Assembly: GCA_030295235.1 (NCBI GenBank)
Contig: AP026124.1
Span: forward strand, 558,001-622,000
DNA length: 64,000 nt
Direction of reading: 5' to 3'
Source of the DNA: Fistulifera solaris
Taxonomy: Eukaryota
Both the position numbers and the translations under genes were made by a program. Below the pieces are notes generated by a model. It was given only the letters and a program-made list of their open reading frames with translations. It did no database searches and had not been told where the DNA came from. This document shows, in pieces, positions 1,024 to 45,586 of the stretch. Position 1 is the first letter of the stretch. Each line of letters begins with the position of its first letter.

Positions 1024-3651
1024 TTATTTCGATACTTTGTACGCAGACACCAGCGTACTCACAAGCGACTTATCTTCAGGAGCTGCGGTGCGTTCACAAG
1101 CTAAAAGCATTGCACGGAATAGCTCTTGGTTTGACTCCGTGAAGTAAGTCGATCTTACCGCGTCGATGCACTTGGGAGTTTTCAGAAATAATCCGAAGCA
1201 GCGAACAAATTCCGAAGAAACAGGTGGTCTAGCACACTCGAGTACTCCACTGACAAAGTAACGAATGAGAGATGCATCCAAATCAGACGATCCGTGCTGC
1301 TCCATCTTTTGGGATAATTTTCCAAGTACATCCGGTATCTCGCCTTCCAGGAGTAGCATGATGAGGAGCCGGATACTTTGTTCCTTGATTGTAGTTACCT
1401 TTTGGTAAGAAATGTCTTGATTTGAATGTCCCAGAAAATTGACAGCAACTTCTATGACCCGCTTTCGTGTGAATGGATGCTTCATACTGATAGTGCGCAG
1501 TAGTGAGAGAATGCTTACAGAAATCGTCGGGAACGCGGGAGAGCTTGCAAAATCTGTACCGTGGGTAAATGCCTCGGCCCAAATGACAACGCCCTGGGCA
1601 ATCGCAGCGCAGTTTAAGGCTAGCGAGCACAGCTTTTCGCCAGGTGATGTTCCAGTCTTTGTCTCGTCCAAAAGCATCAGAAAGGAAACCATAGTTTCTA
1701 GCTGTTCACAAAGCTGACTCGCCTGTACTATCATCCTTGTGAGAGCTACTTCGTCCGAATAATAGTCAGCCATATTTCCATCTTCTCCTGTGGTCTTTTC
1801 GGCAGCTAGGACAGCAAATGCTAATAACCTTGCGCACTTGTTGCGGAGAACTGGAGCGACGACTCGCGTTGAGCCTGGCTTGAATAAGTGTTCCAACAAG
1901 GCTTTGATTGCGACAGGGTGTTCGACGAAAAGCCTTCCAGTATCCGCGAAGGATGTGATATCGATGCCGCTGGGAAGAAGAGAATCCAGGACTGCATCAT
2001 CTAATTGCATTCCAACAGAGTGTCGGCGGAGAAACGATAACAAAGCGGTCTCGAGTTGTTTTCTCGTCCCGTTGCCGTTCACTACATTTTTCTCATTGGA
2101 TGTCGGATCATTCTTCAGACGTCTCCTTTCGCTCTGGTGCAGTTCGCTCATGGTCAACGCAACATCCAGTCTTCGCTTTCGAAACAAATGCGAAGTCCCA
2201 CTGGCATTCGATGGCGTCGAGGGGTCGATCATTGAGTTTTCAAGGCTTTGCGAAAGGGCACGCCATTTCCGAATAGCTCTGTTAAGTCGGGAGCCTTTGT
2301 TATTTTCGGCAACCTCCAGCGCCCGAGTTTCCAGATGACGTAACATTTCCATCGAATACAAATAGGTGTACGAAGTAGAACAACACGCTCTCACCAAATC
2401 GTCAACCAGATCGTCTAGCTCCACGGCCGACGAAATGTCGCTTTCGGCTGACACTGATACATTCCCAATAAGTATGAGCTCAGACTGTAGCATAGCATTG
2501 AAAACTGCAAAATGATCGGATTGGTTCACCCGCTTTACAATTTCCCGATGGTGGCCGCGCTTTGATATAGCCTGTAAGCAATAAATGAGAACAGCACTGT
2601 CCTTATGAACGGCGGAGAGATCAATGAGCAGCTTCCGCCATCGAGATGAGTCCATCATTTCTTCCAAAAAAGCAGCTTCTGCTTTTGAAAGGTTCAAGAT
2701 TCGATCACCTGTTTCTTTCGAGAAACATTCCTTTACAAATCGGCTAATTACACCTTGAGTAATTTCTCGTACTGCATCCGTTGACTCTTGTGATGGACCA
2801 TCCTTAGGTGTACCAGCAGATGATGTAGCAGCCGTACGAAAATCAGCAAGCCAACGTCCCAGAAGCCCACAAATAGCCGTCTGACCGTGATAATTATCAA
2901 TGAGCGACGCGATCGCCTTCTGAGGCTGCCCACCTTCACTTCGTACAACTTCCGCCACGTTTTTGATACAACAAGGCTCTAGAATGGAATCGGTTTGATT
3001 CAAGGCTGCTTCCGCTTCCTGAACACGCAGTACTTCCGGGTCTACCCATTCTTCGGGGCTTTCTTGTTTCCTCGTCTCGAAAGTCTCTTCTCTGGGCGAT
3101 CTATGACGCTCTCCATCGCCTTCCATTTCGACTTGCATAGATTCCCCATCGGCGTCGTTGAGGTCACGACTAAGGTCTACATTGTTCGCCGATACATCGA
3201 CAGCTTCCGTTCCAGCTGTCTCCTCATCAACTTCCAGATCTTCGGCGGACACGACATGTTCGTCCGGTTTTTCCCATTGAGTTTCCCCTGTTGATGAGTT
3301 GTAATAGTATTCGCGTCCTTCTTCGTCTTTGTATGCAATCCATTGTGAGACGACCTCTTCGGTGGGTTTTTCTGCTGCATTGTCACCGGCTTCTTGCTGA
3401 TTACGGGTTGCTTCAGCTTGCTGGGCATCCGGATTCGCTTGGTCGGTATTGACATCATCCGCCGTAGCAACCTCAGTTTCCTCCCCCTCGACTATTTCCG
3501 GTGGATTGAACTTCTCATCTTCCGGTGGATCCCATGAGCTTTCTTCGGTGACGCTGTTGTAATAATAAAGTCGGCCTTCTTCGTCAAAGTAGGCTGACCA
3601 ATCATGCTTAGCGCTTTCTATTTGTGCTGTTTGTTCTGTTTGTTCGGACAT
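1024..3651 (-). CDS. NELFCD: Negative elongation factor C/D (TH1)-like protein with two N-terminal WW domains
   Basis: Two WW motifs (WSAYFDEEGRLYYYNSVTEESSWDPP; WIAYKDEEGREYYYNSSTGETQWEKP), then DSILEP...GGQPQKAIASLIDNYHGQTAICGLLGRWL resembling the TH1 N-terminus; single long ORF, first ATG at 3651. Confidence 0.8.
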   Translation of the reverse strand: MSEQTEQTAQIESAKHDWSAYFDEEGRLYYYNSVTEESSWDPPEDEKFNPPEIVEGEETEVATADDVNTDQANPDAQQAEATRNQQEAGDNAAEKPTEEVVSQWIAYKDEEGREYYYNSSTGETQWEKPDEHVVSAEDLEVDEETAGTEAVDVSANNVDLSRDLNDADGESMQVEMEGDGERHRSPREETFETRKQESPEEWVDPEVLRVQEAEAALNQTDSILEPCCIKNVAEVVRSEGGQPQKAIASLIDNYHGQTAICGLLGRWLADFRTAATSSAGTPKDGPSQESTDAVREITQGVISRFVKECFSKETGDRILNLSKAEAAFLEEMMDSSRWRKLLIDLSAVHKDSAVLIYCLQAISKRGHHREIVKRVNQSDHFAVFNAMLQSELILIGNVSVSAESDISSAVELDDLVDDLVRACCSTSYTYLYSMEMLRHLETRALEVAENNKGSRLNRAIRKWRALSQSLENSMIDPSTPSNASGTSHLFRKRRLDVALTMSELHQSERRRLKNDPTSNEKNVVNGNGTRKQLETALLSFLRRHSVGMQLDDAVLDSLLPSGIDITSFADTGRLFVEHPVAIKALLEHLFKPGSTRVVAPVLRNKCARLLAFAVLAAEKTTGEDGNMADYYSDEVALTRMIVQASQLCEQLETMVSFLMLLDETKTGTSPGEKLCSLALNCAAIAQGVVIWAEAFTHGTDFASSPAFPTISVSILSLLRTISMKHPFTRKRVIEVAVNFLGHSNQDISYQKVTTIKEQSIRLLIMLLLEGEIPDVLGKLSQKMEQHGSSDLDASLIRYFVSGVLECARPPVSSEFVRCFGLFLKTPKCIDAVRSTYFTESNQELFRAMLLACERTAAPEDKSLVSTLVSAYKVSK

Positions 3652-4178
3652 TGCATTCGGTGTATCCAAAGGAATGCAACTCAGCGATTGCTAATTTATT
3701 ACTAAGATATTTTCAGGTTTAGGATGGTGATGATTACAAGGGATGAATACTATTGCTCTAGGTCCTAGAGGTCAACGTTTACCAAATGCATTGCGATTTG
3801 CTATGGCGATGTGATGCCTTTCGGAGAACTTTTTATTTCTTTCTCATGTCGTACTGCTACCACGAACATAAAGCAAACTTACTCTGTGACAGAGATGTTG
3901 TTTCACTCTGACCTTCTTTCGTCGCCGCATTTCTCCCACCACTCCGCTGAGGATCGCATCATCTCTAGAAAAAATAACACGGCAAGCATCGTCGGCCTTT
4001 CTCGACACGAAAGTCAAGTTGAATTCTTGTTAAAGCGATCCAGCATAAATTGAGTCCGTTTTCACACTTTCACTACAAAGACACTTTCTACTCTCCTTTC
4101 ATCAGAACGGACACGGGTGACGGTCGGCAACTATTGAAGAGAGGCAGCACAAGGCATTCGACATTCAGGGTCGCTCCC

Positions 4179-7100
4179 ATGACTTCGTATGGCAGTATCC
4201 AAGGAAATATGTCGCCGTCGAACACCGACCCTCACGAAACAACTCCTCTCGTGAATGGTAGAAGCGACAGCAACATTGAACACGTGTCGACAAAGGGTGG
4301 TTACTGGTCAAAACTTACCTTTCACTGGTTTACGCCAGTTTTGTATCGAGGAAACGAAAAACTCAAACTCGATCAAGACGATCTTGCCCTCGTGCCTTTG
4401 TTAAATGACTGCGAGACCGACTATGTTACTACTACCTTCGATAAGTATTGGGAGGAAGAGCTACAGAAAGAGTGTCCTTCCTTGGTAAACGCTTTAGTCC
4501 GGTCGTTTGGTGCGGAATATCTAGAGGGTGCGGCCTTGAAACTCGTGCATGATCTATGCTTGTTTGTGGGGCCACAAGTTCTCCACAGCATGATTGTATT
4601 TCTTAGAGATCCCGATGCACCACTCTTATGGGGTTTGTGGCTCATTTTTGCTGTGACGATCAGTCAGTTGGCCATGAGCATTTGTCTCCGGCATTACTTT
4701 TATAAGGTAAGTGATTTACGATAGCCCCTATCTCTTTAAGCAGTTACAATGTGGAACATCTCACTGCTCTCCTCAAGTGCTACACAACTGGACTGCGAAC
4801 TCGAACGGCAATTGTCATGGCAGTGTATCGAAAAGCTCTACTTTTAAGTCCGGAAGAAAGACAAAGTCGTAGCATGGGTGAGATTACAAATCTTGCCTCG
4901 ATCGATGCACAGCGCTTACAAGGTACGAAACGAACTTCTTTGTTATATTGTTGATCCGATTGTTTCTTACCGCCATTAATACTACGAATAGACTTGACAA
5001 CGTATTTGAATGCTGTTTGGTCGAGTCCTCTCCAAATTGGCCTCGCTCTTTTCTTTCTGTGGAGGCAACTGGGTCCGAGCTCGTTGGGAGGCGTATCCGT
5101 CATTATTATTATGATCCCAGTAACAAAGTATATAGCGACTTGGATGGGCACTATGCAAGCAAACCTGATGAAAGCAAAAGACGAAAGAGTCGAGCTGAAT
5201 GCAGAAGTGTTGGGCGGAATGAAAGTCATCAAGTTTCAAGCCTGGGAAGAGTCGTTTCAAAAGAGAATACAAACGCTTCGTGAAGCGGAGCTAGCGCAAC
5301 TGCTGCGATATTTTTTGGGGACCTCATTTTCTCGCATGTTATGGGTATTCACACCGCTTTTGGTTGCCCTTGCGACCTTTTCTGCCTACGTTTGGAGCGG
5401 TCATAAACTCGACGTAGCTTCAGCGCTGACAGCTTTATCTCTTTTCGATCTTCTTCGATTTCCACTATTTATGCTGCCGCAAAGTAAGTTACTCCGAACT
5501 TAGTTCTCGCGTCTTCGATGTGCTTGTGTTCTCATATTCGTAATGACAGCCATCAATTCAATCATTGAAGCAGCGGTTTCAATTGATCGCCTTCGGGGCT
5601 TTTTCATTAGCGAAGAGCATCACGCAGTAGGACCGGGAAATTTGACAGAAAACGGAATCAACATTAATGGTGTTTCGGCTGTGTATGGCTCGAAAAACAC
5701 AGAAGGAGGGACTACCAGTCGAGCAGGGCGAAAGGACACATTGGAGAAGGATAAAGAAGTTGCTATTCTAAGGGCATTACTTTCAGACGCTGAGCAAGAA
5801 ATCCAGAAATTGCAAGGTGAACAACCCTTTTCGCGCCAAGAGCCAGTAATTGACCAGGCAGGCTCGTCGCTTTGTTTGCGAAGGGTGAATTTCAAAATCA
5901 ACCAAGGAGAAGTTATCGCCATTGTGGGCTCAGTTGGTAGTGGAAAAAGTTCGCTGATTAATAGCATTCTCGGCGAATTACGACTACTGACAGGCAAAAC
6001 TGAAGTAAAGGGAACCTTGGCGTATTTTTCTCAGACCCCTTTCATTATGAACGCATCCGTCCGCGATAACATATTGTTCGGTCACGTGAACGAGCCTCCC
6101 GACGAAGATCTCTATCAGCGCGCGCTCGATTGCTGTGCTTTGCGGCATGATCTGTCGTTATTACCCGATGGTGATCAGACTGAGATAGGTGAAAGAGGTA
6201 TTACGTTGTCGGGCGGGCAAAAAGCGAGGGTTGCTCTGGCGCGAGCTGTGTATCATAGAGCTGATATCACACTCGTTGACGATGCTCTTTCGGCTGTTGA
6301 TGCCCACGTGGCGAAGCACTTGTTTGATCGAGCTATTCTTGACGAGCTGATGCAGCCTACTATCCCAGGTAGTATGCGCAGTGTTGTCCTGGTTACCAAT
6401 GCTCTTCAATACTTGAATCATCCTAGAATCAACAAAATATACGTCATTGAAGAAGGTCGAATTGTGGAGGAAGGTTCTTATAGTTCATTGTCAAACAATC
6501 CAGATTCGGTTTTCGCCCGAATTTTATCGGTAATAAAAGATAACAAAGTGTCGAAAGACTTGTCAGAAACTGAAACCGATTCGAGTACGGAACCAAAGAA
6601 GACTCTAACTTCGACTCCAAGCGATAACGGGCATAATCTTACATCAAAGAAGACAAAGCCGTCTAAGCTGGTTTCCGAAGAGCTAAGAAAGACAGGGAAA
6701 ATTTCTACTGAGGCATATTTATCTTGGATACATGCATCGGGTGGCTTCATGATTGCCTTTTTCATTTTGGTTCTGTTCGCCGCGGGTGAGGGGGTGGGCT
6801 TTCTCTCAAATTGGTGGTTGACTTACTGGTCTCGACACGCAGATGAGGCGAGTCAGTTTAGTTTTCTTAGTACATATGCTATCATCAATCTATCTGCAGC
6901 TTTGGCAGGGGTTTTCCGCATGCTTTTTGTTGCTTTGGTCAGCCTGAAGGCCTCTCGTCATGTAAGATATATTTCGCTTTCATCTGTACTGATTGTCATT
7001 GCCGTTCGATTCTTATGTGGTTTCGTTGCAGTTGTTTGATGGTCTACTGAACGCGGTCCTCTTTGCGCCTATGTCATTTTTCGACACGACGCCTGTCGGA

Positions 7101-8764
7101 CGGTTGGTGAACCGATTTAGTAAAGGTACGTTGGAACCTGACTGACTAAGAGATTTATAAACTTTCAGAGAAGCCAGCACCTCATGATTCTTTCCAGATG
7201 TCTACACCATTGACGAGCAATTGGTCCAAACACTAAGAATGTACTTGCAGACTGTTTTTTCGATATTGAGTACATTTGTAGTCATATCAGGTGTTACTCC
7301 GACATTTCTTGTCGGTCTCGTCCCACTTTGTTTGTTTTACATATCTGAGCAGCGCTTTTTTTACGGTAAGTTTCAAAATACCTGTCCTTATAAATTTGGC
7401 GTTGTCATTTGTCTTACGCATATATATTCTTGTAGCTTACCTACCGCGAGATAAAACGGCTTGACTCTGTTCTTCGATCCCCGATATATGCTCTTCTGGG
7501 CGAAACAATAGATGGAGTTGCATGTATCCGAGCATTCTCAGCACAAAAATCACTGACAGATAGGCTCAAAGTTATGCTTGATGAACAGCAACATGCATAC
7601 TTTTTAACATGCACAGCGCAATCATGGCTGGCCGTCAGGTTGGAGCTAATCGGGACTTTGGTCATCACTTTCGCTACAACGAGTGCAGTTGTGGAACATG
7701 CTCTGTTTGGCGCAGATGAGACTTTTGCTGGATTGGCAGGACTGGCAATCTCGTACGCATTATCGGTCACGCAATCACTGAACTGGAGTGTTCGTATGGC
7801 CAGTGATCTCGAAGCTAATATGGTGGCCGTCGAGAGGGTGCAGGAATATTCCCAGATTCGTCACGAGGAGCTTCGCAATGCCGAACTGGACGAGAAACTC
7901 CCCCAAATTGGCCTGCGCACGGTGAAATTGTCTTCAAAGGAGCAAAGTTGCGTTACCGTCCCAACCTACCTTTAGTTCTCAAAGGCCTCGATTTACACAT
8001 ACCTTCGGGATCCAAGATTGGTGTTGTTGGGCGCACCGGTACGTTTTGATTTTCTCTTGAAAAATGCGTTTCCCCTCAAATCGACTTGAATTCTCATCGA
8101 CGTATATTCGGCTTCATTAGGGGCTGGAAAGTCGACGCTTATGGTGGCGCTAATGAGAATAGTTGAATTGGATGAAGGAAGTATTTCGATCGATGGTGTT
8201 GACATTCGACAGATTGGTCTAGGTAAATTGAGACGAAATGTTGCCGTTATACCCCAAGATCCTGTTCTATTTAGCGGAACAATCCGGAGCAACCTTGATC
8301 CATTCGACGAATTTAGCGATGAGCAGCTGCACACAGTTCTTGAAAGTGTTGGTCTCTACAAGAGAACCATGGAGGGATCTATGCACAGTTACTCATCGCT
8401 ACCGTTGGCTCGGGTTGATTCGATCGATGACACAGTAGTTGAAGGGGGTAATAACTATTCCGTTGGACAGCGGCAACTTGTAGTAATAGCCAGAGCGCTT
8501 CTCCAGGGAGCGAAGATAGTCATTATCGATGAAGCTACGGCAGCTGTTGATGCAGAGACGGACGCTGCAATTCAAAGAGTGCTGAGAGTGGAGTTTGCTA
8601 ACGCTACTTGTCTAACTGTCGCTCACAGATTGAACACGATCATGGACAGCGATTTTATTCTAGTCATGGACGATGGTAAACTTGCCGAGTTTGACAAGCC
8701 CGATGCTCTGGTGCGAAAGGGTGGCTTGTTTAGGGATCTTGTTAAAGCTGCTTCTCATGATTAA
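4179..8764 (+). CDS. ABC transporter subfamily C (MRP-like), multi-exon
   Basis: Two TMDs and two NBDs: [79 protein letters not shown]. Several short GT-AG introns and one apparent 1-nt frameshift near 7901-7907. Confidence 0.93.
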
Positions 8765-8996: not shown

Positions 8997-10850
8997 TTAG
9001 GCGCTTTCAGCTTCGGAGTTCTTCATCTCGGTCAACTGTTTCTTATACTTTTGACTTCGCCGGAATAAAATCAGTGCAAAGATCACAAGAATCACGCAAA
9101 GCAGACCTAGCCCAATGCTCAAACCAGGTGTGAGCGAGTTTTGGCCTTTTGATTTTGCGTTAGGCAACTCTGGTTGAACAGGACAATTAATTAACATAGC
9201 CTTTTCGATATCATAGTCCCAGCGAGGTGTCAGCTCCACGTCGCAATATGGGGCATCCAATGGGAAAACATTGTCTACGGGGCGCTCAAGACCGCCCATC
9301 TCTGTTTCCAGAATTCGAACTTTATTGATCGCATGAATGATAGTCTTCCGCGTGGTTATATCATTGAGAGGAGTTTTTCCAGAGTTCAAAAGGAGCAGTA
9401 CATTTTGAACATCATTTGAGAAGAAGACCGACAAATTATTGGTCTCTTCGTTACTTTCGATCTCAATCAGATCTTGCGCATTCAAAACACCAGATCCCCA
9501 AACCACGTCCAATAATCCATCTAACAACGCTTTCTTTACCTGTTCTGCTGTGTCGTATCTCACAACAAGTAGCTCTTCCACTTGAGAGGCACCTCCCCAG
9601 TAATTATCATGTCGAACAAATAGAACTTCATCATCAACAACATCCCCATCGGCATTTGTGGAAGACGTTCGACTACGAAACATGAAGGGTCCCGTACCCG
9701 AAATATTCTTTATCCCTGCACAGATGATGGATGAATCATTCTCAAGAGAAGTAAAATCTACCCATCCAGCATGACACGAGTTACCTGTCACAGGATCTTT
9801 ATCAACAAATGCTGCAGGCGATAACATTCGAAGGGGCCGAATAAAAGAGAGCTCCTGAAGGAAAGGGTAGTACACTGACTTGGTAATTACTACAAATGTG
9901 GCGGAATCTTCGCAGCTCCATTCCAATATTTGTTGCGGTAGTCCATACCAACCATGGTAATCGGCAGATAGCAGCGGTTCAACTAAAACGTGATCGAAAT
10001 TGAGCTTGGCTGCTTCACAATTCCAGGGTATACCGCCATGAAATGTGACCCCTTTTCGCAATGAAAACGTGTATTTCTGCCCCCCATTCGTGTGTGGCTC
10101 GACGTTATACGATTGTGCCAAGGCGGGAAGAATCTGACCGTACTCTCCGTAACTCACAAGACCTTCGTAGATCCAGTTATTTGCAAAAAATTCGTTGGGG
10201 CGGTAGGTGTGAGGATCAAGACGACCGACCGACTGAAAAATTCCCGTTTGGGCTCCAGGTGAGATGCGAACAGTGGTCGATCCGGAGAGAACTTGCAATC
10301 GATGCAGAGGGTAGTCAAATTGCTGTAACCCGGCTTGGTAGCCCGTCAACCTGTTGTTCATAACAGTCGGCACGCGTTTGCCCCACAACGGCAGCATGAC
10401 AGCCTGTTGATGAAGAACATTGTGTATATCTTTCCACTTCGTTTCACGCTCCCGGTGGTCCGACTCCTGAAGTACGTCCTGAATCATGTCGAAGATCGCT
10501 TCTCTAGATGCTGGTGGCTCCAAGTTGGCCATTGCATGATAATGTCCTTCATCGCCGGTCATCCATCCCGACGCGAACGAATGGGGATCGTAGGGGGCGC
10601 CCCACGTTTCACTAAACGACAGATGGAAGTCACCGGTCTCGTGAGCTTTGTTAAAATCTTCCTTGGACAGAAATCGTGGAGTAACTGTTATGCCCAGTCG
10701 TTTCAAATCCATTCGAATGCCGTCCTCAATTGAGACCAGAGAAACGTCCCCTTCTACCATAATGAAGTCGATAGCATGTTTCTTGCAATCGGCGGGGCCC
10801 GTTTGTGCCAGCAACATGGTAGGCACGAGAACCAGAAGCAAAGCCAACAT
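8997..10850 (-). CDS. NikA/CntA-like family-5 solute-binding protein, circularly permuted, with signal peptide and C-terminal TM anchor (ZCRP-B-like)
   Basis: Motifs TWGAPYDPHSF, VGRLDPHTY, YEGLV, YYPFLQELSFIRPLRMLSP, GTGPF, NYWG resemble E. coli NikA; hydrophobic N-terminus; TM helix GLSIGLGLLCVILVIFALILF followed by a basic tail; intronless. Confidence 0.88.
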   Translation of the reverse strand: MLALLLVLVPTMLLAQTGPADCKKHAIDFIMVEGDVSLVSIEDGIRMDLKRLGITVTPRFLSKEDFNKAHETGDFHLSFSETWGAPYDPHSFASGWMTGDEGHYHAMANLEPPASREAIFDMIQDVLQESDHRERETKWKDIHNVLHQQAVMLPLWGKRVPTVMNNRLTGYQAGLQQFDYPLHRLQVLSGSTTVRISPGAQTGIFQSVGRLDPHTYRPNEFFANNWIYEGLVSYGEYGQILPALAQSYNVEPHTNGGQKYTFSLRKGVTFHGGIPWNCEAAKLNFDHVLVEPLLSADYHGWYGLPQQILEWSCEDSATFVVITKSVYYPFLQELSFIRPLRMLSPAAFVDKDPVTGNSCHAGWVDFTSLENDSSIICAGIKNISGTGPFMFRSRTSSTNADGDVVDDEVLFVRHDNYWGGASQVEELLVVRYDTAEQVKKALLDGLLDVVWGSGVLNAQDLIEIESNEETNNLSVFFSNDVQNVLLLLNSGKTPLNDITTRKTIIHAINKVRILETEMGGLERPVDNVFPLDAPYCDVELTPRWDYDIEKAMLINCPVQPELPNAKSKGQNSLTPGLSIGLGLLCVILVIFALILFRRSQKYKKQLTEMKNSEAESA

Positions 10851-11473
10851 CTTACACGGAAGATGAGATCGAATATACGAATCTCCTCCAATTTGAGAGA
10901 GGCATACATCTACCGTTTTCTAGAAAAATTTGTGAGACCAAGGCCAAATATCATCAAAACATCAAGGCCTACAGGCATTTTGATTAAGCCTCAAATGAAG
11001 CTCGGTCGACAAACTCGGTGCTTGCTGTCTAGAGTTTTGGCTCCGTCTTGTTGTGTTTCCTATTTTTTGTTGTTGACATTGAAAGGCCTTGGCATTAAGA
11101 AGCCTCTTTGTTTGATCGTTGATGCTTAACGGCTTCAGCTAAAATTGAATCGTTTCAACTCAATTGTGAAAATCATTCACTTGTGTCGAGGTAAAAGAAA
11201 GATGAGGCTTTGGGCCTTGTCGAAGGCAATTTAAAGCCTATGACGGGTGACCAGTGACCAGCGCTTATAGTCCCGAATCTGTTAGGCCCTTGAAATAGCC
11301 TTGTTTTTCGTCACTTTTTCGCACACGACGCGACAACACAAGTCGTCGTCGCTTTTGGTTGAAGGAAGGCTACCAGTACCATTGTTAAGTGGCTGTCGGC
11401 AGGAATATTCTATCTGGAAAAGTAATACTCCGTACCAGGCAATATTCTTTCCACCTAAAATTATGACTCGACC
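10851..11473. promoter_or_regulatory. Putative bidirectional promoter shared by the NikA-like and ferric reductase genes
   Basis: 623 bp between divergent ATGs (10850 and 11474), with about ten AAGGCC/AAGCCT/GGCCTT-like copies. Confidence 0.55.
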
Positions 11474-13947
11474 ATGACACAAGTCGCTGGGATTATCGTG
11501 GCCTTGCTTGGCAGTCTTCTATTTCAACTGGAGAAAAGTTCAAGTAATATACTGTATTTTCATGGAAATAGCTGGAGCTGCACCACATGGCAAGAATGGA
11601 CATGGATCGCGGTCACAGGGCTAATTATGCTTATGTTTCAAATGAAACCAAACAGTCAGATCTACCCGCCGTCAGAACAAGCGAAGAGCAAGCTCTTTCT
11701 ATGCTTCTTGACGATAAACTTAGTATGGTTTTCTGCTGCCGTCTCGGAATTAGATTACACGTTCTCGGTAGTGAAGGCGGTGGAGTTTCTGGGGCGAAGG
11801 CTGCCTGGCCAGGCATGTGGAATTTAGCATTTTTCATTTTCCCCATCAAACGCTCGTCTGAAATATTCGCGATCTCACATAAAGATACTTTATTTCTTCA
11901 TATTTGGGCTGGAAAAGCCATCTTCTTGTGGCTAGCCGTCCACACGGTGCTCTTATCCATCGCATACGCCGTAAATTTTGACTATTCAGTCCGAAACTGG
12001 GCAAAGGTAATGATCCCATCAGGTGATCTGTATACAGAAGGTGTAGTGAATTTCATGGGGTGGCTTGGACTGGCCATGCTCCTACTTCTGTGGCTAACTT
12101 CTCGACCGTGGTTCCGCAAACACTGTTACGAGATGTTTTCCGTCCTGCACCTGATGACAGCCGCGTCCTTCATTCTGTTCTCAAATCTCCACGACTACAA
12201 CACAATCCATTTTGTACAACCGGCATTTGCTGCGTGGATCGCTGAGCGACTACTTCGGCGTATTTCAACCTTAAGGGTCATGATCGAAGAAACACAACCA
12301 CCTACTTCTACTGAAAATGGAATCCTTTCCAATGGCGGTATCCTCGCTGTATCGATTTGTAAAAGAAGTGGGAGAAAAGATTTTCCTCTTTTGGTGCGTC
12401 TGACCATGACTTTACCACGATCCTGGAATGTTTGTCCTGGTACGGCAGCATTCCTCTATCTGAAATGTCCGAGTATTTCCAACTGGCAGCTACATCCGTT
12501 CTCGATTAGCACGATTGATGTCGAAAGCATGACCTTTTCTGTACATATCAAAGCTCTCGGTGATTGGACTAATCAATTTGTTCGGCAAATAAATCAGCTC
12601 GTCATCAAAGCGGACTTGGAGCTCGACGCTCAGCAAACTGGTCGGCAGGAGACGAGTGAAACATCGCAGGATACCACGAACCATTTTGGTCTTTGCATTG
12701 AAGGTCCCTATTGCTCAGATCTTGGTGCACAATTGGATTCCAATCAAAAGTGCTTATTCATAGCTGGAGGAGTGGGTCTCACCGGCTTGTCTGAAGCCTT
12801 ATACCGCCGACACGGACGTGGACAAGCTACGCTACTGGTTTGGATCCTCCGCACTGTCGAGGAAATGGACTTTCTGGCCAAAGATTTACTTGATCGCCTA
12901 CAACCACCCCGGGACACAACACGAATCAAGGTGTTTATCACGCGCCAGAACGAGCATTGCGAACGTCGTCGCCGGCAGACCGCGAAATCGGATCACGCAC
13001 CGTTGCTGATGCCCGGCTACGTCAAGTCAATCGACGGGACTGCAGCGGCGAAGAATTCAATTTTGACGTTTTCTACAATTGTGGAAGAGACGTCCACAAA
13101 TCCAGATCAAAAAATGATGTCGATTGTCAGCCTTCTAGGAGTCTCCCTCAGTTTCTTGCTTGCTCGGATGACCTGCTGCAATAGGACCGTGCGTGACATT
13201 GAGACCGAAAGAATTCTCCACACCTGTTCCGCAGTGCCTAGGGCCTCGACCAGCATGACCTGTTCCAATTCATGCCAAGATGAGAACAATGGCATTCCTT
13301 GTTGTACCACGCCTATATGTTTCTACTGCTTCCGAGGGTTGCCCATTCTTTTCATGTTCTTCCTGGCTCCTTTGTTACCTCTTCTGTTTGCGTGGGTATA
13401 TCCGTACTGTATTCATGTCACGAAATGGGTGGGCAAAGCCCTCCGACCTCATCAACTTGCACCAGAGTTTCGATCTTGTACGTCAGTACCGCTTCAAATG
13501 GCGGGTCAGTCGGCATCTGCAGTGGAGGATACCACCGAAAATTCCGCAGCATACGGCGATGCCATGAACGGTTCGTTGCGAGTGATAGACAATTTGTGTC
13601 ATCGAAACGCGTCTGTCGTCATGACCAATCTCAATCACACCACTGTTGAGTATCGAAAACCAAATTTGTCGAAAATTGTTCAAGAGTTCGGTGCCTCCGT
13701 TTACAGAAACGATGACGAAGACTTTGCTATCAGCGAAAATAGCAACGTCCGGCGAGACGCGGAAATGAAAGAGGCCGCGGTATTTGTTTGCGGATCCAAA
13801 GCTCTCGCTGAAAATGTGTTGAAGGAGGTGGAAATTCACAATACTGATAACATACGCAATGACGAAAGAAGCACGTCATCTCATGAAGCTTTCCGGTCTA
13901 ACCGACGTGTTTATTTGTCAGTATGGACGGCCACCGGGGCCTATTGA
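11474..13947 (+). CDS. Ferric reductase (FRE/FRO, NOX-family flavocytochrome)
   Basis: Heme His pairs (LHIWAG...AVH; LHLMT...NLH), FAD motif HPFSI, IKALGDWT, EGPY, AGGVGLT, FVCGSKAL; N-terminal TM ORF 11474-11827 joins the main frame if one G is added at 11791-11794. Confidence 0.88.
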
Positions 13948-43088: not shown

Positions 43089-44395
43089 GGCGGTTTTGAT
43101 TATTTATAGTTGTTATTTATCTTTGTGGGGGTGTTGAAAGCTCCCTTCCACGAGAAGATGTCTCCTTTGTATTGCCTTGCTTTTGATGTCAAGGTGTGTG
43201 TTCAACTGGTGTGATCATGGTGTGATGCGACGTGATTGCAGAACACCCACGTCAAACAAATTCACCAATGGAACGAACTGTGTCAGCAAAAGGAACAGTC
43301 GTGTCTTAAGTCATCTGGGACTTTTTGAATTAGAAGTGATCACTTGCCTCATCGTGATTATAGCGGTCTCAACATTCTCCCCGGTTAGGGATGGCCAATT
43401 TCTGAGGACACTAATATGGAGTGTACTGCAATTGCCGGAAACGCGACAAATTTATGAGGCATTGAGTACCGTGATACAGTACGTAAGCAGAAACGTCATT
43501 GACAGCGACTCGATTCTGAATAATCATCATCATCCAGATTCTTTCCCGGATTTGGAATTTGGAAGCCAAGATCCAAGATGTCAACCCATCTACAACTCGA
43601 TACATGCACGACGCACGAGACATCACATGACATCAAGAACCCAGAGTTCCTTTGGTCTCGATTCTTGATGTCGACATGGCATTTGGCTGACGACAAGGCT
43701 GATAGCAGAAGTACGACTTATCCTACAACGGTTCTGATACTAATATTCAAAAATGCATGACGCATCGAAATTGGGGCTAAGTGTAAAAAGTGTAAATAAA
43801 TGTAGAGACGCACGGCTGCTAGCAGACGACGTTTTTCTCCAGGACTGATGGTATCGTGAATCTTGAGTCGGAAGAAGGCAGCCCACAATTATTTACAGAG
43901 CATCTAAGGCAACTCACTCCTACTGCATCGTCAAGATTCATAGTACCAATATAATGCTAGTGAAATGATGATGTGATATACATTCTATTCAAGCGTAGTT
44001 TCCACCGTAATTTTCTATCGACAGGATCCGTGGTTGAGAATGAGTCGGGGAGAAGGGTCTTTTTTCCAAAAACTTTTTAATTACTCGGAGCTTGGAGTAC
44101 TTGTTTTCTTTCGAAAGGTAATTCTCTTTTATTTAGTCGAAAATAGTCACAAGTTACAACTACCGGGTACCCACCGTTTGAAGCGAACGAAGCGAAGCGT
44201 GTTTTTCAAATGAACCCAGCCCAGCTCGTCCGGGTGTCTGTAAGTCTACCGGAACAAGGCCACAGACCACGCAATACGAAAACGCAGCAGTCCTTTTTAT
44301 TCTCACATGTGATAATCGATAATCAGAGATTCACAGAAGAACACCCATTGAATCTAAATTACCCGGAATTGATAATTTGAAATAATTAATTGTAT

Positions 44396-45586
44396 ATGCT
44401 GCAGAAAATGGACGAAGAAAAAGCAATATTACTAAATAAGGACTACGGTAGTACCGCATCCTTGACGCCCGCCTCGACCAAACGATGTTTTGAAGAGTCG
44501 GAACCGGCCGGTTCGGTTACATCCGCGGAAAGCAACGAATCGATCATTGTCGCTGGATTTCACATCCCTTCATTACGGACGATAGCGATCCAGCTTTCGC
44601 TCTATGTGAATATTCTAATCACGCTGGCAAAGCTGATAACATACATTCAAACATTTAGTCTATCGGTGCTCGCGGCCCTGCTCGATTCTGTTCTCGATGT
44701 GGTTTCGCAAATGGTTCTCTTTCATACTGAAAAGCACAGCTCGTTGCAACGCTCTTCTGCTTTTTATCCAGCTGGAGCTAGTAGACTGGAACCAATTGGC
44801 GTTCTGACATGCGCCGCGTTAATGGGTGTAGCATCCTTCGAGGTGCTCAAAGATAGTCTCATGGCTCTCATTTTCAACAAAACCGCCATGGATGCGGATG
44901 ACTTGACGTTATCGAGTTTCTGGAACATGCTTTCTATTGTCTTGATTAAGGTAGCCCTTCTTTATCTGTGTAAGAGGGCCGCTAATCGAAGAATACTCCG
45001 ATCCAGTAGCAGTATGGAAAACGACATGGAATCCAAAACTAAGACGGAAATTGCCGACTCGACGATGGAAGCCTTGGCGAAAGACCACTTGAATGATGCA
45101 CTTTCCAATGTTGTCGCCGCATTGGCTCTATTGTGTGCTCTGAAGCAACCCTCTTTGTGGTGGCTCGATCCGGTCGGTGCTGTTGTCATTTCACTCTACA
45201 TTATTTACTCATGGTACACCACCGGGAAGGAACAGATTGAACATCTGACAGGAAAAGTCGCCCCGGAAGAATTCATCGAAGATATTGTCAACATGGCCAA
45301 CGCCTTTGACGATCGCCTAGAAGTTGACCACGTCCGTGCGTATCACTTCGGACCAAAGTTCTTGGTTGAGTTGGAAGTTGTCATGCCAAAAGAGACATTA
45401 TTGTTTGAGTCACACGACGTTGGAATGGAGCTGCAGTATGAGATCGAAGGCCGGGAAGAAGTTGAGCGTTGTTTTGTCCACATTGATTATCAGACGAGGC
45501 CTTACGACGAGCATGTTGTTAGCAAAGTACCCGAATTGCGCGAAAAGTATCGACCCCGAAAACTTCGATCAACCCAAAGCGTATAG
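44396..45586 (+). CDS. Cation diffusion facilitator, Mn-CDF/MTP8-11 type
   Basis: DSVLD and DHLND (DxxxD) metal-site motifs, YPAGASRLEPIG, RAYHFG, HDVG..LQ, VERCFVHIDY. Confidence 0.92.
   Translation: MLQKMDEEKAILLNKDYGSTASLTPASTKRCFEESEPAGSVTSAESNESIIVAGFHIPSLRTIAIQLSLYVNILITLAKLITYIQTFSLSVLAALLDSVLDVVSQMVLFHTEKHSSLQRSSAFYPAGASRLEPIGVLTCAALMGVASFEVLKDSLMALIFNKTAMDADDLTLSSFWNMLSIVLIKVALLYLCKRAANRRILRSSSSMENDMESKTKTEIADSTMEALAKDHLNDALSNVVAALALLCALKQPSLWWLDPVGAVVISLYIIYSWYTTGKEQIEHLTGKVAPEEFIEDIVNMANAFDDRLEVDHVRAYHFGPKFLVELEVVMPKETLLFESHDVGMELQYEIEGREEVERCFVHIDYQTRPYDEHVVSKVPELREKYRPRKLRSTQSV

Follow-up and report, generated by a model that had tools for sequence, protein, structure and literature searches.

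A NikA-type binding protein and a divergent reductase gene as a candidate surface module for chelated-metal uptake in the diatom Fistulifera solaris

The 64,000-nt stretch of Fistulifera solaris contig AP026124.1 analysed here (the window) contains two divergent genes: a binding-protein gene of the NikA/CntA type (the binder; 8997–10850, minus strand) and a ferric reductase-type gene (the reductase; 11474–13947, plus strand). The binder is encoded by a single-exon open reading frame (ORF) of 617 amino acids, and the ORFs of the reductase begin at 11474 and 11587. The binder ATG (10850) and the first reductase ATG (11474) are separated by a divergent spacer of 623 bp (10851–11473). The initial annotation of this DNA described a head-to-head pair across a 623-bp spacer, with which the ORF list and the Pfam and NCBIfam matches agree. 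It also reported that the window lacks NikBCDE, which holds for the full 64 kb: no NikBCDE-type permease was found, and the ATP-binding cassette (ABC) proteins present are an ABCC-type exporter (~4.0–8.8 kb) and an ABCF-type protein (58–60 kb). We consider it probable, by analogy with known systems, that the two genes constitute a conserved surface module for the uptake of chelated metal, which would resemble the FBP1/FRE2 system and employ a binder of the ZCRP-B type.

The binder contains an SBP_bac_5 domain (PF00496, 1.1e-36) and no other Pfam domain, which places it in family 5 of the bacterial binding proteins. The top NCBIfam model is NikA (TIGR02294, 6.3e-85), with a score of 285.6 bits that falls under the equivalog cut-off of 393, and the model of the staphylopine receptor CntA matches at 2.4e-54 (184.8 bits, under its cut-off of 800). 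The next NCBIfam model, likewise named nickel-binding, reaches only 3e-14, and the best peptide binder 2e-10. A PDB sequence search with the binder retrieves E. coli NikA at 6e-55. Alignment by phmmer with NikA (PDB codes 1uiu and 1zlq) revealed that residues 32–155 of the binder (10386–10757, minus strand) correspond to the C-terminal part of NikA (residues 347–467), and that residues 207–555 (9186–10232, minus strand) correspond to NikA residues 13–319; the two chain segments are swapped relative to the canonical order. This alignment identifies the binder as a circularly permuted form of bacterial NikA. The NCBIfam ranking thus bears out the initial assignment of the gene as NikA-like, but the permutation had been overlooked. 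All 120 binder homologues among the matches listed cover 79–100% of the query, which indicates that the permuted arrangement is a trait of the whole eukaryotic NikA-like family, whose named members come from diatoms, Symbiodinium and Chloropicon. Throughout this family, the C-terminal 120–150 residues of bacterial NikA stand first. No relatives of the binder were found in a viral contig collection.

The binder begins with a hydrophobic signal peptide (approximately residues 1–16; 10803–10850, minus strand), which is evident in the translation, in the hydropathy profile and as a low-pLDDT helix (residues 2–15), and which is presumably cleaved. Close to the C-terminus, a predicted transmembrane anchor (approximately residues 577–595; 9066–9122, minus strand) is followed by a short basic tail. 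The hydropathy of this stretch reaches 2.69, computed, as for the N-terminus, on P0153, a protein 90% identical to the window binder; the structural model forms a helix at residues 573–610, and the hydrophobic stretch is retained throughout alignment A4. A hydrophobic N-terminus combined with a strong C-terminal hydrophobic helix suggests that the binder is a type I membrane-anchored protein, which would be located at the cell surface. In the public sequencing run X1, second contigs are 95–99% like the window over the binder (9416–10572) and carry many substitutions, as would be seen if the data set also contained another, diverged copy of the locus.

The AlphaFold2 model of the binder, built from an alignment of 46 sequences, is confident, with a pLDDT of 86.9 and a pTM of 0.79. 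Foldseek searches with this model are led by Brucella and E. coli NikA entries (4oer, 3e-21; 1zlq, 3e-20), then by CntA (3e-17). NikA and CntA occupy the top 21 ranks, and peptide and opine binders appear from rank 23. According to the entry titles, the top structural matches are NikA with FeEDTA or butane-tricarboxylate-nickel, followed by CntA with staphylopine-cobalt. Foldseek aligned only ~375 of ~498 target columns, which is expected where a sequential aligner meets a permuted chain. Four residues that we take to line the chelate site of NikA (R137, W100, W398 and Y402) were located in the binder. The equivalents of R137 (R338) and W100 (W301) are present in 119 of 119 family members, that of W398 (W83) in 114 and that of Y402 (Y87) in 117. 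Since the chelate-holding arginine and aromatic residues are retained, the target of the binder is most likely a metal in complex with a chelator and not the free ion. The position of NikA His416 is occupied by Glu in 108 of the 119 members, and a His lies two residues further on in 75.

The gene opposite the binder had been annotated as an FRE gene. Its reductase domains are confirmed by Pfam, but the frame is split in the assembly, which had escaped notice. The assembled reductase is distributed over two frames (11474–11827 and 11587–13947); three hydrophobic segments are encoded in the first ORF, and full-length relatives possess them too. Two of these relatives, P0122 (850 aa) and P0124 (822 aa), read '...EFLGAKAAWPG...' through the point at which the frame changes. 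At this point the assembly has a homopolymer of four G (11791–11794, plus strand) that is one G short, and a single contig of run X1 carries one additional G behind position 11790 (depth 13.7 of 13.7). With this G, the gene encodes an 824-aa reductase that has no internal stop and aligns end to end to P0122 at 81% identity. Since P0122 and P0124 read through the break and the G of run X1 restores the 824-aa frame, the break is a homopolymer error of the assembly, and the gene is not a pseudogene. The database models P0121 and P0123 (645 and 641 aa; this gene and its F. solaris counterpart) start with 'MIPS' and are ~180 N-terminal residues short, owing to the homopolymer error or to a late start call. 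Both models begin past the first His pair described below and lack two of the four expected heme ligands, which would mislead domain-based surveys.

On the evidence of its ORFs, Pfam domains and full-length relatives, the restored protein is predicted to be an FRO/FRE-type NADPH-dependent transmembrane metalloreductase. The cofactor motifs of the NOX superfamily are all present: a four-His membrane domain, an FAD motif (HPFS) and NAD(P)H motifs (G-x-G-x-T and CGS). The Ferric_reduct transmembrane domain (11857–12198, plus strand; PF01794, 2.5e-12) contains two His pairs, H167/H181 and H250/H264 in P0122 numbering, whose partners are 14 residues apart and which are invariant in the 19 sequences of alignment A2; as in NOX and FRE proteins, these presumably serve as bis-heme ligands. 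The FAD-binding domain (12391–12714, plus strand; PF08022, FAD_binding_8, 4.9e-12) carries the HPFS motif at 12490–12510, and the NAD(P)H-binding domain (12763–13827, plus strand; PF08030, NAD_binding_6, 7.6e-08) carries GGVGLTG and, further on, CGS. The NAD(P)H-binding domain is split by a two-helix hydrophobic hairpin; in the P0121 row of the alignment, ~340 aa and two hydrophobic segments lie between the motifs. The hairpin (13114–13428, plus strand) encloses a Cys-rich loop, and an R-G-L-P sequence opens its second helix. R589, C621, C634, C635, F644 and R645 are also invariant in A2. The Cys-rich loop should face the non-cytosolic side, where it could act as a metal acceptor or as a docking site for the binder. 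The two-helix hairpin was considered as a shared derived mark of the partner reductases and rejected, as many of the reductase relatives examined have one as well.

To follow the pairing, metagenome contigs were scanned with the binder, which yielded 58 loci; 24 of these include 1 kb or more of sequence upstream of the binder and are informative, and the upstream sequence of the remaining 34 is too short to judge. A reductase lies upstream on the opposite strand in 13 of the 24 (L004, L015, L017, L019, L020, L027, L028, L030, L032, L033, L042, L043 and L053). Three others have a ferroportin head-to-head with the binder (L034, L049 and L050), and eight have neither partner (L014, L016, L023, L038, L041, L045, L048 and L051, the last of which duplicates the L050 locus over a shorter length). 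The orientation is head-to-head in all 16 linked loci, including all 13 that carry a reductase, and Pfam verifies the reductase in the linked loci with sufficient sequence. The ferroportin partners (L034:228–1724, L049:1439–2695 and L050:1–852, all on the minus strand) match PF06963 down to 7.5e-71. Linkage in relatives, whose loss the initial annotation had named among its grounds for refutation, is kept, both in these metagenome loci and in the locus tags of the Fistulifera solaris record, where FisN_1Hh267 (binder) and FisN_1Hh268 (reductase) are adjacent and head-to-head. Its choice of an FRE gene as the partner stands for the 13 loci, but it overlooked ferroportin as the partner in some diatom loci. 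In the protein database, a binder and a reductase also share contigs of 81,680, 16,300 and 949,180 nt.

Nothing else around the binder is preserved in the same way. The six other neighbouring ORFs of the window have no match at any of the 58 loci, among which the binder diverges down to 45% identity, and Pfam detected no other recurring metal-related gene among 82 flanking ORFs, including those downstream of the binder. Every recurring partner is a membrane protein acting on transition-metal ions. The conserved head-to-head linkage supports a functional coupling between the binder and its partner.

The 623-bp spacer is presumed, from the divergent gene starts, to be a bidirectional promoter. 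Head-to-head spacers elsewhere measure 293 bp (L043), 329 bp (L017) and 540 bp (L030). CACGTG, a motif associated with the response to iron in diatom promoters, does not occur in the 623 bp. The palindrome AAGGCCTT (11083–11090) has its sole copy in the 64-kb window within the spacer and also occurs in the binder-upstream spacers of L004 (position 3064), L049 (3333) and L050 (1319); AGGCCW half-sites are ~12 times denser in the spacer than across the whole window. As a regulatory motif the palindrome was rejected, since by our own estimate its presence in four spacers, three of them independent, is within chance for ~33,000 possible 8-mers, and it is kept as a weak lead.

In a binder tree of 65 rows, from which L028 was left out as too incomplete, the 13 reductase-linked loci fall into eight distinct sequence lineages, since several are near-identical (L015/L017/L019/L020, L032/L033 and L042/L043). 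The window binder groups with F. solaris in a diatom clade of 26 rows, which includes L042, L043 and L004 (reductase), L034 and L049–L051 (the centric, ferroportin group; L034 adjoins Skeletonema menzelii) and L041 (unlinked). Another well-supported clade, with 14 rows, contains a single named member, Chloropicon primus, together with L053, L015/L017/L019/L020 and L027/L032/L033, all of which are reductase-linked. The binder–reductase pair is thus present in marine algae that are only distantly related. The reductase family paired with this second clade includes proteins from Emiliania, Bigelowiella and Triparma. The tree also contains at least three paralogous diatom binder subclades. A FastTree phylogeny of 60 rows places the partner reductases of the diatoms in a clade of 19 rows (support 89) and those of the second group in a separate clade of 17 rows (support 100). 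The two clades are not sisters, the deep branches are weak (support 18), and common ancestry of the two clades has no support in the 60-row tree. The topology would be compatible either with two reductases recruited beside the binder or with one old pair that diverged past the resolution of the tree.

At two individual loci, the sequence near or within the binder departs from the common pattern. The L043 binder has an in-frame TAG at 11087–11089, shared by L042, at a position where 113 of 119 family members retain a Trp (W363 in the window). The TAG occurs in contigs from two metagenomes, and the reductase beside the L043 binder is intact (901 aa); the TAG-bearing binder may be a pseudogene or a variant. 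At the non-diatom locus L019, an ORF downstream of the binder (6277–7542, minus strand) encodes a D5_N domain of the virus or plasmid primase-helicase type (1.4e-06).

The binder is also found fused to a second type of receptor domain. In L030, one ORF of 1046 aa (1772–4912, plus strand) contains a hydrophobic N-terminus, PF00496 (residues 247–572), PF01497 (residues 613–892; Peripla_BP_2, the FhuD/FBP1 type) and a C-terminal anchor, and this fusion faces a reductase over 540 bp. A second protein, P0090 (981 aa), contains permuted NikA-like and Peripla_BP_2 domains in the order reversed relative to L030, and shares a 503,337-nt contig with the reductase P0232. Through these fusions the NikA-type binder is connected with the kind of receptor that was shown, in Phaeodactylum, to act jointly with a reductase (PMC6876252). 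The permutation and the two independent fusions to FhuD-type domains show bacterial binding proteins that have been rebuilt to work without an ABC transporter.

The arrangement suggests the following mechanism. The two genes would be driven from the shared divergent spacer, and the surface-anchored permuted NikA/CntA-fold binder would capture a metal chelate. The reductase would take electrons from NAD(P)H in the cytosol and pass them, by way of FAD and two hemes, across the membrane to its outer side, where the captured complex would be reduced and its metal loosened, and the freed divalent ion would then be imported by a separate permease. At some loci of the centric diatom clade, a ferroportin-family transporter would take the place of the reductase as the divergent partner. 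The surface location, a chelate as the ligand, the electron hand-off and the identity of the metal are the conjectural parts of this scheme, which builds on the observed gene structure, fold, permutation, intact redox motifs, conserved linkage and FBP1-type fusions. For the metal, we tentatively propose Co(III) chelates as the preferred substrate, as no metal other than cobalt fits all of NikA/CntA, ZCRP-B, ferroportin and a reductase; this is possible, though not the likelier outcome. Cobalt in seawater is held as inert Co(III) chelates (PMC3369199). ZCRP-B, a diatom NikA homologue, is a field marker of zinc and cobalt stress in the ocean, for which the main text of PMC9010474 named no working partner, and the conserved reductase or ferroportin supplies concrete candidates for such a partner. 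A bolder and likewise tentative extension is that ZCRP-B's missing partner has thereby been located, in a modular system of several algal lineages whose permuted surface receptor is genetically coupled to an FRO-type reductase or a ferroportin-type transporter, or fused to an FBP1-type receptor. Its main task would be to capture the kinetically inert Co(III) chelates in which most of the ocean's cobalt resides and to release Co(II) by reduction. If true, this would explain how diatoms gain access to ligand-bound cobalt once zinc runs out, and would provide a route to organically bound cobalt, a long-standing question of marine trace-metal research.

Several observations weigh against this scheme or parts of it. 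The linkage is not universal, as eight of the 24 informative loci have neither partner; among them are every informative locus of a clade with high GC (four: L014, L016, L023 and L038) and the diatom locus L041, whose upstream gene encodes a TPR/zf-MYND protein on the same strand. Many linked loci are kin by descent, so that the locus counts overstate independence, and the two reductase clades may reflect the poorly resolved deep branches rather than independent recruitment. The coupling of binder and reductase is argued from genomic linkage, and their co-regulation is putative. Zinc is not reducible, which makes a reductase an unexpected partner for a zinc/cobalt marker such as ZCRP-B. The existence of at least three diatom binder subclades means that the window binder may not be the one that responds to zinc and cobalt. 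Ferroportins are known as exporters from the cytosol and fit poorly with uptake. His416, which is essential for nickel uptake according to the title of PDB entry 3qim, aligns with Glu in the binder. Iron is disfavoured as the substrate because the NikA-like protein of Thalassiosira pseudonana is the most down-regulated protein under iron limitation in the available text of PMC3797725.

Four other explanations compete with a chelate-uptake module. The genes may be co-regulated without any hand-off between their products: a shared metal-responsive promoter would serve the binder and a reductase that works as a general Fe(III)/Cu(II) reductase or as a superoxide generator. This explanation suits a pairing whose support is genomic linkage. 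It also suits partner reductases that come from two clades, so that any reductase might do, and the difficulty of assigning diatom reductases from sequence that is stated in the available text of PMC6876252. However, gene order around the binder is otherwise lost, so that the pair has been held together down to 45% binder identity, and the FBP1-type fusion beside a reductase links the binder to the sole diatom system for which that same text shows a receptor and a reductase cooperating; co-regulation without hand-off is therefore rather unlikely. The adjacency could also be due to chance, or to synteny inherited among close relatives, as the near-identical linked loci named above might suggest. 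Eight lineages, two reductase clades, the ferroportin alternative, a head-to-head orientation in 16 of 16 linked loci and the loss of every other neighbour render this highly improbable.

A third possibility concerns the location of the binder. Its ectodomain could reside in a secretory or endosomal lumen, obtain Zn, Co or Fe through a ferroportin or reductase route and load lumenal or secreted metalloenzymes under metal scarcity, serving delivery or buffering. A signal peptide with a single anchor suits any compartment of the secretory path, ferroportins export from the cytosol (plant FPN2 is vacuolar in the available text of PMC8635114), and ferroportin is the partner in three of the 24 informative loci. 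Against a lumenal role, tagged P. tricornutum ZCRP-B was observed at the cell membrane (main text of PMC9010474), it is hard to see what a reductase would contribute to lumenal loading, and the conserved chelate-type pocket suits the capture of external complexes, which together leave this explanation improbable. We also regard as very doubtful a non-metal ligand (a peptide, an opine or glutathione), with the reductase link otherwise caused. NikA and CntA are far ahead of the other NCBIfam models and fill the top 21 Foldseek ranks, the chelate-holding residues of NikA are kept in 114–119 of 119 members, and all recurring partners act on metals. A non-metal ligand would agree with a family 5 that consists mostly of peptide and opine binders, which appear from Foldseek rank 23 onward, with the loss of NikA His416 and with a NikA model score under the equivalog cut-off.

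The ABCC-type full transporter (4023–8764, plus strand) is convergent with the binder and consists of ORF pieces in several frames (4955–5500, 5504–7036, 7436–7972 and 8090–8761, plus strand), which may reflect introns or more homopolymer errors; an ABCC-type gene beside the binder is not conserved across the 58 loci. A cation-diffusion-facilitator gene of the ZnT/MTP type (44390–45583, plus strand; Cation_efflux, 1.6e-29, and ZT_dimer) lies ~30 kb from the pair, and its proximity is probably a coincidence. The 64-kb window contains no ferroportin. Runs X2–X4, which may be RNA, extend over parts of the reductase and of the adjacent ABC gene and not over the binder; they count neither way.

The uptake module proposed here most resembles FBP1 and FRE2 of Phaeodactylum tricornutum. 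The initial annotation had cited these two genes as neighbours that work together, in accordance with the available text of Coale et al. 2019 (PMC6876252), where they are divergent and cooperating. Both systems combine a bacterial-type receptor with a divergent NADPH-oxidase-type ferric reductase, over a spacer of ~1.5 kb there and 623 bp here, and the L030 and P0090 fusions physically unite the two receptor types. In contrast to FBP1, which is an FhuD-type Peripla_BP_2 protein, the receptor here belongs to family 5 and is permuted. CACGTG is absent from the spacer, and iron limitation lowers the level of the related protein in T. pseudonana (PMC3797725); the metal is probably not hydroxamate-bound iron.

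ZCRP-B is described in the main text of Kellogg et al. 2022 (PMC9010474) as a diatom NikA homologue induced at low zinc or cobalt, which lacks a NikBC partner and is presumed there to belong to a so far unknown multi-protein complex. According to the same text, no ZCRP-B could be found in the proteome or transcriptome of Chaetoceros RS19, in which Co cannot replace Zn. The window binder is likened to ZCRP-B by description only: both are diatom NikA homologues with one membrane-spanning segment and the bulk of the protein outside. The two descriptions differ in topology, as PMC9010474 puts the transmembrane segment near the N-terminus, where the window binder has a probable signal peptide, and the anchor here is C-terminal. 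The main text of PMC9010474 mentions no reductase, ferroportin or circular permutation, and its supplement may bear on topology and alignment. A reductase or ferroportin partner is likewise absent from the main text of the papers found that name ZCRP-B, and within the library searched we found no published description of such a conserved partner, of the permutation or of the fusions.

With the bacterial NikABCDE and CntABCDF systems, the binder shares the fold, the best sequence and structure matches, and the equivalents of R137, W100, W398 and Y402. It differs from them in its swapped segments, its membrane anchor, the replacement of His416 by Glu and a score under the NikA equivalog cut-off, and no ABC permease or ATPase partner is encoded in the 64-kb window. 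In plants (FRO2/IRT1) and yeast (Fre1 with Fet3/Ftr1), a chelate is reduced outside the cell, and a separate permease then imports the ion. The reductase shares with these systems the flavocytochrome b architecture and an NAD(P)H domain that carries additional hydrophobic helices. In contrast, the Cys-rich, putatively outward-facing loop is confined to the diatom partner clade, and neither the plant nor the yeast reductase is known to have a tethered receptor dedicated to chelates encoded next to it. A further point of comparison is ferroportin (IREG/FPN), as a full ferroportin is the head-to-head partner of the binder in three loci of the centric diatom clade. Plant ferroportins move iron and cobalt, and FPN2 lies in the vacuolar membrane (PMC8635114); ferroportins are known to carry metal out of the cytosol, which differs from the uptake proposed here. 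Both the receptor–reductase logic (FBP1/FRE2) and the binder family (ZCRP-B) are already known. If the pair functions as proposed, this logic would take in another receptor family and probably another metal as well.

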